24,725 nucleotides of DNA from an uncultured Methanosarcinales archaeon (GTDB lineage Archaea; Nanobdellota; Nanobdellia; Woesearchaeales; DSVV01). The stretch spans positions 1 through 24,725 of the forward strand of contig CAZFZC010000001.1 of NCBI GenBank assembly GCA_964523155.1, in the 5' to 3' direction. Below are positions 13,394 through 21,800 of this stretch, in pieces (positions within the stretch are counted from its first letter, which is position 1; each line of letters begins with the position of its first letter). Under the pieces are notes generated by a model, which was given only the letters and a program-made list of their open reading frames with translations, was not told where the DNA came from and did no database searches. Position numbers and translations under genes: made by a program.

Positions 13394-14344
13394 CTATGGA
13401 TAGAGGTAGACCCTTTCTGTGCTTATCACGTCAGGCGTGACAAACTGCGTAAGCGTGGGAGTCCCTATCTTCGGGATAAAGTTCAGCCGCACCTGCTCAT
13501 CCTCTGTAATCTGGCCAGGTGACTCAAAGCACAGCCGGATTATATCTCCCCTCTGCAGGTTGCCCTCAACATGGTTTGTCCCTTCCTGCTCATAGATGGC
13601 TGTGAAGTACCCTTCACCATACCTGTAGGGCCTCACATTTACGCTGACATTCTCATCAATTATGTCGTTCGTGCATGTCTGGCCGCTGACTGTCAGGTAG
13701 GCAATAACTTCAGCCCCTGTGCCTGTTCCGTTCATAACTACTGCGTTCGAGACACTGAGGGCAACGCATACGCCTGATGCATTGGTGATGTTTTCGCCGC
13801 CAGTGACGTTAAATGCCCCTGTGGCACTGAGATTGAAAACATACACAAGCGCATCCGTGTTTGTTATGTACATGTAGTCATCCAGGCCGTCATCATCAAG
13901 GTCTTCCTCAAGCCGGTACATGTTTGGCGTTGTATTAAGCAGCCCTACCTGCTCGTCGTTCCACGTATTGTATCCGATGGAATTGTTCTTCTCGCAGATT
14001 GCATCGGATGTGTCCCTGTATTTCAGGGTGCTTGTCCTGTCCTTTGTGTTAAATGTAAAGATAACCTGCGTCAGCTTTATAGGGTCGGATCCAGGAGCCA
14101 GTTTTATTATTTCCTGGAAATCCGTCAGGTTTCCGTTTCTGCCGTCTGTGCCGCTGACCTCTATTGCCCTTGCATTAGTTGATATCTGGCTTCTTGCCTG
14201 CTGGCCTGTTGAAAGGCTCTGCTCCTGCAGGCTGCCCGCAGTCTGTATCAGGACGCCTGCTGCAACTGCAGCAACAAGAAGCATGGCAATGAACACTATT
14301 AGTGTTCCAACGCCCATTTCAGCTTTTTTTGACCACATCTTCAT
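13394..14344 (-). CDS. flaB: Archaellin (FlaB/ArlB) with an insert of about 115-120 aa in the head domain
   Basis: Class III signal peptide KKA|EMGVGTLIVFIAMLLVAAVAAGVLI, archaellin head motifs KLAPGSDPIKL and GNLQRGD...IPKIG...TP...LYP, GAGGTG RBS. Start could be ATG 14338. Confidence 0.93.
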   Translation of the reverse strand: MKMWSKKAEMGVGTLIVFIAMLLVAAVAAGVLIQTAGSLQEQSLSTGQQARSQISTNARAIEVSGTDGRNGNLTDFQEIIKLAPGSDPIKLTQVIFTFNTKDRTSTLKYRDTSDAICEKNNSIGYNTWNDEQVGLLNTTPNMYRLEEDLDDDGLDDYMYITNTDALVYVFNLSATGAFNVTGGENITNASGVCVALSVSNAVVMNGTGTGAEVIAYLTVSGQTCTNDIIDENVSVNVRPYRYGEGYFTAIYEQEGTNHVEGNLQRGDIIRLCFESPGQITEDEQVRLNFIPKIGTPTLTQFVTPDVISTERVYLYP

Positions 14345-14400
14345 TCACACCTCTTTCGATTATGAATATTGGTATACGATTTCATATATTGAGATACCTC

Positions 14401-14485
14401 GAATATATAAAGGTTTCGCTTTTGCCGTGTTGTTTCTTGCGTTCGCTGAGTTAGATTTATATATATAAATATAACAATGTGTTAT
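14401..14485. promoter_or_regulatory. Divergent promoters: flaB TATA (minus, 14401-14412) and arsR-operon TATA palindrome (14455-14470), plus inverted repeat ATAACA-N3-TGTTAT (14471-14485)
   Basis: CTTTATATATTC on the minus strand; perfect 16-bp palindrome ATTTATATATATAAAT; inverted repeat between the TATA and ATG 14487. Confidence 0.6.
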
Positions 14486-20700: not shown

Positions 20701-21438
20701 ATAGCCCTTAACCTTTCAAGCGTAGACACACAGGAAGCGCCGGAGCTCAACGCATCAGGCATTGCCGGGCTGTACAGCCTTGCCTTCCAGAGGACTCCTA
20801 TCATCCTTAGGGATTCTCTTGTCTGCGCTGACTGCACTGTCCTGTCATACATGGCCGGCAACCTGACATTCAATGTGACTGGCTGGAGTGGGTATGCTGC
20901 AGCACCCAACAGCAGGCTCATAATATACGACGAGCGCGACAGCCTTGGAGGCGGTCTTGAGAAATACGTCAATGAAACCGTCACATTCTTTGCAAACTTC
21001 TCCAACAGGACTGACGGCTCGCCGGTTGCTGGCTCATGCAACATCACTGTGGACGGAACTGAGCAGGTGATGGCCTTTGACAGCGGGCTTTATACATACA
21101 CGACGACGTTTGCTGCCTATGACGAATACCAGTGGAATGTGTCCTGCACGTCCGCAACCCACGAGCCGCTGAATGCCACAGACACAATTGTCATACTGAG
21201 GCAGAAGGGTGTCAAACACGGCTACTGCACCCTGGAGTACATCCAGACTGCAGACGACCATATAGACGGGTACATATCAGAGGGCGACAAGGTGAGGATA
21301 TTCTGCGAGCCTGGCTATGAGATAGGCGAGGACGAGGAGTTTTCTGTCTCAGTAGTGCCGGGCACAGGAATATCAGCAGACAAGATCCTGAGGTCGCCGG
21401 AGCATATTGTAAGCGAGACAGAGGCAATCTACCCATGA
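14758..21438 (+). CDS. Giant (2226 aa) secreted adhesin-like glycoprotein ending in an archaellin C-terminal half-domain
   Basis: Sec signal MAERWLILCLVLLLLPATAFG|A; two blocks of four beta-rich repeats; cadherin/Ig-like repeats; many N-x-S/T sequons; no C-terminal TM or PGF-CTERM. The last 72 aa align without gaps to the last 72 aa of the FlaB in this window (22 identities). Confidence 0.9.
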   Translation: MAERWLILCLVLLLLPATAFGALERGFRVQQGSALITGLEHNISIAAVSSLERAFVLPPHYSSTGQRDVWPASDTSAMTSHDYADYTIRLTGNNRISVERESTTDNVTVGWQVIEAIDHEFKVYRGLYDATNSGTDFFIPINSTVNASNTMVLVTGHHTSTTGTGLYGRFLFNAYAYNSTHIRVARGDGGVSDCQISWVAVEFNLSRISSFQTGRTLVDGGVHTEANHSKVALSPEVNTSTSLLIFQINVSDGGLDQSSVAGYIAGSNQTDFYPSSCGNSGDTTVDRDVRYYIIDFGPQSGQKAGGQLDYSSNANWYNHSQSLGSDFNLSRAVSFVSLTHDGTGIYHPRPFPNIYLDSASSLNIYRSFYGQEAYLEWQVLELPYYKDRYPPNITQIAPSQGYWDDSWDPVNVTFNCSASDLDNKLANISLYITNSLNLSLSYNSSCSPGAQSGYCNWTLELGKGNYSWKCRAYDEYGNGNFSAERPLRLNFTDTTPPVFTQLPVNRTLEIGDAFSYKINATDNYRMSNFTVNDSAFTISTSGLLENQSALSVRLYSLNVTAIDSYGNTNSSVFWLNVTDTTPPQILYMPNVTELSGKPLGAQFQAEDVTGIHSWRVNDTGGFAINSTGFLSNATALGTGIYWINISINDSFKNSVWRRIWVNITNNPDTRKPWFEPVPVDQYSELGTAFAYDIDAYDDYGIGSYNVNDSTFSIDGFGLLSNASALAVGVYYLNVSVNDTSGNINHTLFLVNVSDTTEPAITYITNITVSYNTSLAVQFNASDLSGIYAWSVNDTDFQISSSGLLENATLLALGYHHLLITVNDTYNNSANETIYVRVIDTLAPWFTDIGNITVEYGDGLDYDINASDDVGITSFGVNDSRFAINLSGHLTNETHLPVAPYSLNISVSDGAANTGWAVVWINVTDTTPPLISAYNQTIEYYSDSEGDFDATDLSGIKKWDVNDTRFTIRNGYLTNLLQLAKGYYRLMISVSDIYDNTRYVEVFVNVTPYTGTNGWRVQHGETRMQGSDTYVDIDSVRTDHAFILLTVSAAGSYDDPNRAGIWAEFVNESRFVLHQFHGLADSNYVGWQVIENPNLRSQHVKHSYGSAETAANVSLSKPADPDKSLVVIEYANSPQTSASNFPEAVWTANMTNTTNVRLYRGMGGNGGSVGFFVVEFNDGSLVQKGSIELAGNNTGYFQLGAPVNVSESWVYFSHSSTSDANGLNDMGVIVTNIDSDTYMAYRSGNGGTKRINWYVVTTPGATNRTGQFQGSPLDSGYYPAGGYSGSQINRSLLDVSQRNTGGGTTYSNLLAAYSIINSTHFYMRRESTGNSHFVSYNVIELPTYEISWNQSNLSLGRVLHMKGNASKTVQILASGLQFSSRVGCTGNCSLIMHNFTNGTNLSDGESVLVNFSCKNSTEGNLSALFSVVSNHDSSPDYLVVACNVTRDRAAPVVNINASQNNTVTEDTMPSVGFNFTDRLSTTANCTLYFDGQAVNASSMLSNNTAHSLKSNTTLADQNYTVYVKCTDESNNTGNSKTLAYSVDTLPPDVNNVSPLPGAVVWRNHAVNITANVTDIVSVKRVYANISWQGGSAWQEMLDPDSDSIYVTAFLNTAWVGRYNVTIAANDSLDHINMSGGTWFNVTPVPDIYPPNVSINQSLNNTLTSDATPSVDFNFTDNASQTAVCTLYFNSTPYNTSVAQNSTQTALTANASIPSGTYDVHINCTDLSSNTGMSEHLVYEIDAVVPAVKNITPAASGEFWLFFSVNITANVTDRHMGSVFANISWAAGSALQEMTDADNNSVYETVFLNTNSVGRYNVTVIANDTLGNTNSTEGTWFLVKANSSINYTLFSPLNHSGDNDGHVLFTYRLSSNYNISNCTLFADNVFLAANTSINETAMQGFRVSLAAGRYSWHVNCTDEYGGTNKSGDSVVSVVPTTGFSSMDLSSVNMNSVSGFYLANAYGRINFTGSLNLSGGPDIDRHVSIALNLSSVDTQEAPELNASGIAGLYSLAFQRTPIILRDSLVCADCTVLSYMAGNLTFNVTGWSGYAAAPNSRLIIYDERDSLGGGLEKYVNETVTFFANFSNRTDGSPVAGSCNITVDGTEQVMAFDSGLYTYTTTFAAYDEYQWNVSCTSATHEPLNATDTIVILRQKGVKHGYCTLEYIQTADDHIDGYISEGDKVRIFCEPGYEIGEDEEFSVSVVPGTGISADKILRSPEHIVSETEAIYP
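14833..15910 (+). repeat. Block 1 of four repeats of about 85-95 aa (xVQxG...R...WxVxE), lectin/tail-fibre-like
   Basis: Repeat ends VGWQVIE, SWVAVEF, RYYIIDF, EWQVLELP. Confidence 0.65.
16234..17780 (+). repeat. Six cadherin/HYR-like repeats of 85-89 aa in (AB)3 alternation
   Basis: DTxxP starts at 16234, 16492, 16759, 17017, 17272 and 17527. Type A units carry Y-x-I-x-A-x-D; type B units carry F-x-A-x-D-x-x-GI-x-x-W-x-VNDT. Confidence 0.85.
17794..18790 (+). repeat. Block 2 of four lectin/tail-fibre-like repeats, paralogous to block 1
   Basis: GWRVQHG...HAFIL vs GFRVQQG...RAFVL; repeat ends VGWQVIE, FFVVEF, WYVV, YNVIELP. Confidence 0.65.
19093..20270 (+). repeat. Tandem duplication of a two-domain Ig-like unit of about 199 aa
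   Basis: DRAAPVV...PSVGFNFTD...CTLYF / DTLPPDV...NITANVTD...QEMLDPD...VGRYNVT is repeated 597 nt later as DIYPPNV...PSVDFNFTD...CTLYF / DAVVPAV...NITANVTD...QEMTDAD...VGRYNVT. Confidence 0.85.
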
Positions 21439-21800
21439 AAAAGGCACAGCACGCAGTCGGGATGATGATAATTTTCATTACTGTTGTGATAATTGCGCTG
21501 ATGTTCGTTGACTTTTTCACCCGTGAGTCTTACGGATTTGGAAGGACAGGCTACGCTGCCGGCAGGGCGGGTATGGCCGGCGCAAAGAGCGGCGTAGCAA
21601 TTGAGGCTGTCACTGTTCAGGCAAACAGCGACAGCGAGATTGATGCGCTGATAATGACAATGGAACCAATTATCGGCTCTGAGCCCATGGGCCTGGATGA
21701 TTTCATTGTCATAATCAGGCAGCGCAACACCACATCGTACCTCCTGCTCAGAAACGGAACATCCGAGAGAAACGCCACACACGGATATTACACAGGATAG
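21435..21800 (+). CDS. N-terminal archaellin fragment (class III signal peptide, helix and first part of the head), 121 aa
   Basis: MKKA|QHAVGMMIIFI. The mature sequence aligns in register with FlaB mature residues 1-102 (VG..I.FI, GS.P..L...I, TS.L..R), then E.N...GY.T. ATGA overlap with the giant gene stop. Confidence 0.85.
   Translation: MKKAQHAVGMMIIFITVVIIALMFVDFFTRESYGFGRTGYAAGRAGMAGAKSGVAIEAVTVQANSDSEIDALIMTMEPIIGSEPMGLDDFIVIIRQRNTTSYLLLRNGTSERNATHGYYTG

Follow-up and report, generated by a model that had tools for sequence, protein, structure and literature searches.

In bacterial type IVa pili, PilC/PilY1 docks on minor pilins of the PilK family by C-terminal β-strand addition, as established by genetics and biochemistry (Ellison et al., PNAS 2026, PMC13533445), with Kingella PilC1/PilC2 as a further case of PilC-type docking (PMC13711793). 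In the first of these papers the archaellum appears just as one of the type IV filament superfamily, with no archaeal case described, and a survey published in 2026 on type IV filament loci of archaea refers to adhesin-like proteins and to no split subunits (PMC13705601). Our literature search, which covered split archaellins, tip adhesins of the archaellum and strand complementation involving archaellins, brought up no closer case. For the archaellum, we know of neither a tip adhesin nor an initiation complex, nor a minor-subunit docking system. Here we analyse a 24,725-base stretch of archaeal DNA (the window), in which the gene for a secreted protein of 2226 amino acids (aa), the giant, ends in the C-terminal half of an archaellin and is followed by a gene encoding only the N-terminal half. 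We regard the pair as probably forming a minor archaellin of two chains on which a Sec-secreted adhesin is docked, the archaeal analogue of PilY1–PilK β-strand addition; that it sits on a filament or at a filament tip we infer.

The proposed system resembles PilY1–PilK in that a pilin-type subunit with a class III signal is partnered by a large adhesin, itself no pilin, that is exported via Sec and has no anchor, in that the adhesin's extreme C-terminus would, as modelled here, complete the subunit's β-sheet, and in that the genes sit with filament machinery. It differs in lacking any sequence relationship: neither the giant nor the N-half matched a PilY1/PilC or PilK/GspK family in Pfam and NCBIfam scans at E up to 0.01. 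The donated piece comprises ~74 residues and four or five strands, whereas the PilY1 strand is ~10 residues long; an archaellin cut at its insert hairpin would serve as acceptor, whereas PilK is a complete minor pilin without its last strand; and the present system is archaeal and archaellum-linked. On the reading above, an established principle turns up in a domain of life, and on a machine, for which it had not been reported.

Three other described systems invite comparison. Insert-bearing archaellins (the 300–505-aa proteins of this lineage and the solved 454–463-aa 'flagellins' 9V95/9V96, besides the ordinary 7OFQ, 5O4U and 8RH5) have the same N-terminal helix, β-sandwich and terminal Y-P, and the hairpin at which their extra residues exit is the same. 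They are, however, single chains with inserts of up to a few hundred residues, whereas in the split pair the chain is broken, a secreted 2150-aa protein with a signal of its own takes the place of the insert, and the gene order is reversed. In donor-strand complementation (chaperone-usher pili; archaeal threads, bundling pili and cannulae: PMC12518558, 10.1101/2022.04.26.489512), an incomplete immunoglobulin (Ig)-like domain is likewise completed by strands of another chain, but there one strand from the next identical subunit drives polymerisation, whereas the split archaellin would combine two different proteins, each with half a domain, into a heterodimer, any polymerisation proceeding via the type IV helix. 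The ArlF/ArlG stators are also small archaellin-fold proteins with an N-terminal membrane helix, and their genes adjoin the cassette in relatives, but they are complete domains without a class III cleavage motif.

Two adjacent genes encode complementary halves of one archaellin domain

The window comprises the first 24,725 bases of a 29,080-base contig (C1) from a 1.23-Mb metagenome bin of 212 contigs, ~90% complete and labelled G000 among the genomes compared. Close relatives of this genome are filed as Candidatus Woesearchaeota, and the sequencing runs containing the window sequence are microbial-mat metagenomes. According to the list of open reading frames (ORFs), the feature consists of three overlapping plus-strand genes, for an ArsR-type regulator, the giant and the 121-aa N-half, next to an intact archaellin gene:

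14487..14765, plus strand: ArsR/SmtB-type helix-turn-helix (HTH) regulator (NCBIfam NF033788, E 2.5e-17), overlapping the start of the giant by 8 nucleotides (nt) and probably the first gene of the operon
14758..21438, plus strand: giant, 2226 aa (ORF list)
14758..14820, plus strand: predicted signal peptide (Sec-type, ~21 residues) with A-F-G as its end and A as the next residue (the giant's one hydrophobic segment, residues 1–25; cleavage site read from the sequence)
14821..15942, plus strand: N-terminal all-β domain of the giant, residues 22–395, 24 strands (AlphaFold2 model, orthologue comparison)
17755–18897, plus strand: second copy of the all-β domain, residues ~1000–1380 (internal alignment)
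15943..21213, plus strand: stalk of the giant with Ig-like, cadherin-like and Big_13 repeats and a second lectin-like block (Pfam, sequon count)
21214..21435, plus strand: archaellin C-half, giant residues 2153–2226 (alignments, profiles, AlphaFold2)
21435..21800, plus strand: archaellin N-half, 121 aa (ORF list, profiles, alignments)
13394..14344, minus strand: intact archaellin FlaB, 316 aa (PF01917, E 1.7e-28), divergent from the giant operon

At the junction (...tac cca tga aaa...), the stop codon of the giant and the ATG of the N-half share ATGA. The last 73 residues of the giant align without gaps to FlaB residues 244–316 (30% identity, pairwise E 3e-10). They also match positions 76–158 of PF01917 (E 2.7e-4, 20.9 bits), and the N-half matches positions 3–95 (E 1.6e-5, 25.8 bits), both below the 29.5-bit cut-off of this profile; the N-half further matches positions 7–111 of the NCBIfam flagellin model PRK08541 (E 1.5e-8). 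In multiple alignments the N-halves run precisely to FlaB G-Y-N-T (residue 127), FlaB G-Y-F-T (residue 245) is where the C-halves start, and archaellin motifs mark the break across relatives, N-halves stopping at G-Y-x-T and tails beginning at the next G-x-[CF]-T. Hidden Markov models (HMMs) made from the halves cover residues 7–126 and 131–205 of a 205-aa archaellin that has no insert and comes from a related genome and, in ten longer archaellins, delimit N- and C-blocks set apart by inserts of 95–233 residues. Because this coverage is complementary and non-overlapping, the halves amount to one complete domain cut at a hairpin. Thus, the giant tail and the N-half are complementary, non-overlapping halves of one archaellin domain, and the cut lies at the hairpin that is the insertion hot spot of the lineage's archaellins. 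FlaB, which matches the solved archaellins 7OFQ, 8RH5 and 5O4U, itself carries a 115-aa insert (13619–13963) at this same hairpin.

At its start the N-half has M-K-K-A before Q, the class III signal motif; next come a hydrophobic helix (residues 3–32), a diverged Gly-rich upper helix and about four β-strands. The chain ends in G-Y-Y-T-G, four residues past the last archaellin strand motif, and contains no Cys. The [KR][KR][GA] cleavage motif is kept in all N-half orthologues. The C-half has four or five β-strands, a Cys pair in G-Y-C-T and I-F-C-E, and an archaellin-like Y-P end. Neither the tail nor the N-half is a complete β-sandwich head, each chain holding half a domain. The giant has a single hydrophobic segment, signal-peptide-like and at residues 1–25, with no other in its 2226 aa.

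A sequence-only reading of the window had proposed that the giant ends in an archaellin C-part and that the next gene, coupled by ATGA, encodes an N-part only; ORFs, alignments and profiles agree on this, with PF01917 matching both parts (each below cut-off) and PRK08541 the N-part. Its further claims, that the two make up one complete archaellin in reversed gene order, that the break lies at the variable-insert position of FlaB, that the N-half keeps a class III cleavage motif and that the cargo has its own Sec-type signal and no membrane anchor, were borne out by the HMM coverage, the G-Y-N-T and G-Y-F-T ends, the M-K-K-A leader and the single hydrophobic segment respectively.

Two other identities were considered and rejected. 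Pfam scans revealed no Hint or intein family that would point to a split intein and protein trans-splicing. The NCBIfam ArlG model (NF052591) matches FlaB weakly and does not match the N-half, and the ArlG and ArlF of the same genome begin M-G directly, without a basic leader. As a separate observation, archaellins of this lineage mostly carry inserts of 95–233 aa at one hairpin (L001, L006, L005 and L003 on contigs C140, C56, C36 and C118 of G000, and relatives), and open frames with archaellin N-parts reach 505 aa in G000 and 619 aa in the order. Among these archaellin frames of the lineage we saw no single chain with a cargo approaching the giant's size.

The giant/N-half pair is conserved and its halves co-diverge

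The giant-then-N-half pair occurs in seven loci: that of the window (G000), those found on searching 60 relatives (G001, G002, G003, G016 and G017, which represent three genera of one archaeal family) and one on a JGI metagenome contig. Since the same pair recurs in six other loci, the match between giant and N-half is far beyond chance. A pattern scan of genome contigs yielded four loci, all already found. The count of tail-bearing giants comes from the genome searches, as a tail search of a set of 5.8 billion proteins, subject to word and length limits, returned the query alone. Across loci the giants range from 1608 to 2515 aa, and the relatives' pairs are 21–38% identical to that of the window, with all frames intact, including the pair in G002, a single contig of 1.84 Mb. 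The end of the N-half is conserved in every case as G-[FY]-[YS]-T-x followed by a stop. In five of the six ORF-listed loci the two genes overlap or lie 1–4 nt apart (the start of the G001 N-half is uncertain), and on the JGI contig, the seventh locus, a 25-nt gap separates the called genes.

For the closest pair, G001/G002, the ratio of non-synonymous to synonymous substitution rates (dN/dS) was 0.16 for the N-half and 0.18 for the tail. Identities of N-half and C-half drop in step across pairs (0.73/0.72, 0.61/0.63 and 0.46/0.52), and trees built separately from N-parts and C-parts share the inner order ((G001,G002),G003),G016. The pair is therefore conserved and under purifying selection, with its halves co-diverging. 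Moreover, the junction is covered by independently assembled Logan contigs of 17.8 kb (run X2), 1160 nt (X1) and 259 nt (X4). Decay, peculiarity to a single genome and misassembly, named beforehand as ways in which the arrangement could prove spurious, are thus contradicted by seven loci with intact frames under purifying selection and by independent assemblies spanning the junction. The 17.8-kb contig, which stems from a different run of the same study of microbial mats, follows the window to 21799 and continues into unrelated sequence right after the N-half stop. A strain variant hence has another neighbour directly after the N-half, and the point of divergence marks the edge of the cassette in this variant.

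Among 400 further Woesearchaeales genomes we found no clean N-half-only gene outside the family; one match in the order, G057, has an in-frame TGA. In the set of 5.8 billion proteins, N-half-only proteins form ~18 clusters, annotated just as hypothetical or archaellin and separated from complete short archaellins by a clear score gap. In both trees and identities, the window's pair is nearer to those of G016, from another genus, and of G003 than to those of G001 and G002, from its own genus, and integrase-like genes lie near the cassette in several loci (e.g. L046:12794–13375). Cross-genus kinship, a different place and a different regulator suggest that the cassette moves.

A second split family and the cysteine pattern

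A second split family, found in the same archaeal family, is not permuted: an N-half of 124–128 aa with a canonical helix comes first, followed after a short overlap by a cargo of 308–350 aa, which has its own signal peptide, a Cys-rich stretch, a D-x-D-x-D-G calcium-loop-like motif, a β domain and the C-half. In every case the pairs (L038:2905–4297, L039:3293–4667, L040:4039–5518, L048:5001–6375 and L050:5001–6348) have an M48 peptidase gene before them and a Hef-type helicase gene after them, and they are not near filament genes. Because gene order is normal in this family, the permuted order is not essential; the split is what matters.

Cys pairs, counted by HMM columns, distinguish the families. 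In FlaB, Cys117 lies eight to ten residues before the first G-Y-x-T and Cys272 lies in the strand R-L-C-F-E. Among intact archaellins, both are present in six local sequences and in all 120 database homologues, both are absent in five local sequences (Tyr replacing the second), and there is no mixed case. As these sequences are related, the co-occurrence is a pattern and not a statistic, and since all 120 database homologues carry both Cys they add no independent contrast, which comes from the five local archaellins lacking both. From this pattern, Cys117 and Cys272 are predicted to bridge the two halves of intact archaellins. The second split family has one Cys per chain (12/12 N-halves and 6/6 cargos), which is understandable only if the two chains come together as they do in the intact fold; an interchain disulfide is predicted for this family. 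In the giant family, the N-half has no Cys (10/10), and a new Cys pair, one position over in G-x-C-T and I-Y-C-E, lies wholly within the tail (7/7), which would amount to an intrachain staple.

Modelling of the joint

We co-folded the N-half with the last 87 residues of the giant, each supplied with a 20-row alignment in matched order. The co-fold scored 0.47 compared to 0.00 for the best of three controls, which the tool rates as 'weak support': of 80 solved complexes 58 reached its mark, as did 2 of 110 mismatched pairs, and at 0.60 or under just 7 of these 80 solved complexes reached it, along with both passing mismatches. The model has ~259 residue contacts, between N-half residues 52–108 and tail residues 12–87 and taking in nearly all globular residues, as expected for one interleaved domain, and the predicted local distance difference test (pLDDT) of each half rose from ~40–45 beside an unrelated protein to 62–66 together. 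Of the complemented sandwich anticipated from the sequence, the extensive interface was thus recovered, with a score that stayed in the weak range. The companion expectation, that the tail is no self-complete sandwich, agrees with the AlphaFold2 model of the tail alone, in which the C-half is predicted as a four-strand sheet only (pLDDT 66–79); the preceding Ig domain was poorly modelled, and the result is not decisive.

The giant cargo protein

The giant carries 137 N-x-S/T N-glycosylation sequons, and Pfam detects Big_13 in it (E 2.6e-14), with Cadherin, Big_7 and Y_Y_Y below cut-off; orthologous giants contain Laminin_G_3 lectin-like domains (E about 1e-33 to 1e-35) and fn3. An all-β block of ~375 residues occurs twice, the copies being 22% identical and aligning along the domain with gaps. 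Its N-terminal copy is 30–56% identical in four orthologous giants and 18% identical, and partly alignable, in a fifth (G017). The AlphaFold2 model of this N-domain has 24 strands, with a pLDDT of 76 and a predicted template modelling score (pTM) of 0.82; compared with AlphaFold DB clusters, it resembled uncharacterised proteins (template modelling score 0.75) and, more weakly, tandem H-type lectins. A fold search of the N-domain against PDB returned nothing at E <0.01, and the adhesins and PCSK9 that it listed are not evidence. Together, the domain content and the models suggest that the giant functions as an adhesin. Separately, further giant frames of 9,000–9,900 aa lie near the arl cluster in relatives (L046:13377–20381; G001:C1 near 79801; G002:C1 near 553912), and the Ig-like domain in front of the C-half of the window's giant recurs in them.

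Genomic context

In four loci (G001, G002, G016 and the JGI contig), the cassette lies between arlB–arlC (FlaC_arch) and arlG–arlF–arlH–arlI, on the opposite strand, and in G003 it is 3 kb from arlC. This location in the arl operon of relatives supports a link to the filament. At its head, the other six loci have a sigma70_r4-type HTH that is not homologous to the ArsR regulator of the window. The window's cassette adjoins an archaellin gene, and its genome encodes a prepilin peptidase.

A proposed mechanism and its alternatives

We consider it likely that the two halves come together as a single domain and thereby attach the secreted giant to a subunit that bears a class III signal and is bound for a filament. 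In the proposed mechanism, the N-half would be made as a class III signal protein and cut by a prepilin-type peptidase, leaving its hydrophobic helix in the membrane and its half β-sandwich outside. The giant would be exported separately via Sec, without an anchor of its own, and its last 74 residues would supply the missing strands to complete the sandwich, such that the giant lectin/Ig-repeat protein would project from the very hairpin that holds the surface inserts of related archaellins. Translational coupling through ATGA, with the giant first, may ensure amounts close to 1:1 and no empty N-halves. The completed subunit would then most likely be built into the archaellum or another type IV filament, rarely and probably as the terminal subunit, to give an adhesive filament; were it not extracted from the membrane, the giant would simply be anchored to the cell. 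Physical binding of the halves, their separate export, filament incorporation and tip position are steps that we infer.

A more specific version, which we put forward tentatively and rate below an even chance, is that one giant lectin-like protein is mounted per filament, probably at the tip, on the archaellum, as a grappling line for hosts or surfaces; host attachment by the giant is speculation. Held jointly with this tip placement, and just as provisionally, is the proposal that the split arose as at least two families, one with an interchain disulfide and one non-covalent. If true, this would be the first archaeal system that plugs an adhesin into a type IV filament, and it suggests that the sheet-completion docking of bacterial PilY1 has an independent, more radical archaeal counterpart. 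The locus is a concrete candidate for how DPANN archaea hold on to hosts, and a testable one, with two small pieces (~90 and ~75 residues) and a second family that predicts an interchain disulfide. It would offer a split-domain pair of natural origin, similar in principle to engineered split tags, and illustrates an insert hot spot in a filament protein evolving into gene fission.

Several findings weigh against this interpretation. The arl operon of the window's genome is intact on contig C11 without the cassette, and because the genome encodes at least five secretion-type ATPases, a filament other than the archaellum (another type IV filament) is possible. The upper-helix motif S-L-Q-E-x-x-L-x-T-G-x-Q-A-x-x-Q-I, roughly kept in the second split family and all 11 intact archaellins compared, is lost in 6/6 giant-family N-halves compared, for which reason these N-halves may not pack in the filament core at all; the loss fits a specialised terminal subunit and equally fits a subunit that stays in the membrane. 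With no interchain cysteine, the joint of the giant family would be non-covalent. The co-fold score lies in the band that the tool calls weak, and the alignments held intact archaellins cut in two, which leans the model to the archaellin fold, so that the co-fold represents consistency and not proof. Finally, an adhesin function is suggested by fold-level hints only, and 'adhesin' is a reasonable reading and not a result.

The loss of this core-packing motif also speaks for the strongest alternative, to which we assign a lesser but real likelihood: that the halves do complement each other and the N-half is just a detachable transmembrane anchor, perhaps beside the archaellum base like the ArlF/ArlG stators. 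It would suit the abutment of the cassette on arlG and arlF in four loci, the sterically demanding load of 2150 aa on a filament subunit, and the housekeeping neighbourhood of the second split family, after the M48 peptidase gene and away from filament genes. Yet the N-half keeps [KR][KR][GA], a cleavage motif that assembled subunits have and that is missing from this genome's ArlF and ArlG, and matches the flagellin model and not that of ArlG; moreover, the cargo exits at the hairpin that bears the 95–233-aa inserts, a hairpin that would face the outer surface of the filament.

That the halves are no partners at all, the tail binding intact archaellins or the S-layer or serving as a sorting signal, and the N-half being an independent truncated minor archaellin (a terminator or cap), we deem improbable. 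The sub-threshold Pfam score of each half, the moderately confident four-strand sheet predicted for the tail alone and the weak complex score speak for such independence, but it leaves unexplained the strict co-occurrence and adjacency in seven loci, the equal divergence and congruent trees of the halves, their exact complementarity at one hairpin and the cross-chain cysteine pair of the second split family. Even in a bin fragmented into 212 contigs, a broken giant-insert archaellin gene or a misassembled contig is highly improbable, being refuted by intact frames over 21–38% identity (including the single-contig genome of 1.84 Mb), a dN/dS of ~0.17, a cargo with its own start codon and signal peptide, and the Logan contigs across the junction. 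The two-chain archaellin that docks the giant thus remains our preferred reading.

Other features of the window

ARAGORN detected no tRNA genes in the whole window. A 182-aa protein encoded at 12819–13367 matches archaeal signal peptidase I with 50.6 bits, just under the cut-off of 51.85; its gene adjoins the archaellin gene and is near the giant, which needs such an enzyme. A CheC-like phosphatase gene at 7213–7887 indicates chemotaxis in this 1.2-Mb genome, and a proteasome subunit gene at 9536–10465 encodes an N-terminal extension of ~100 residues before the Pfam domain.

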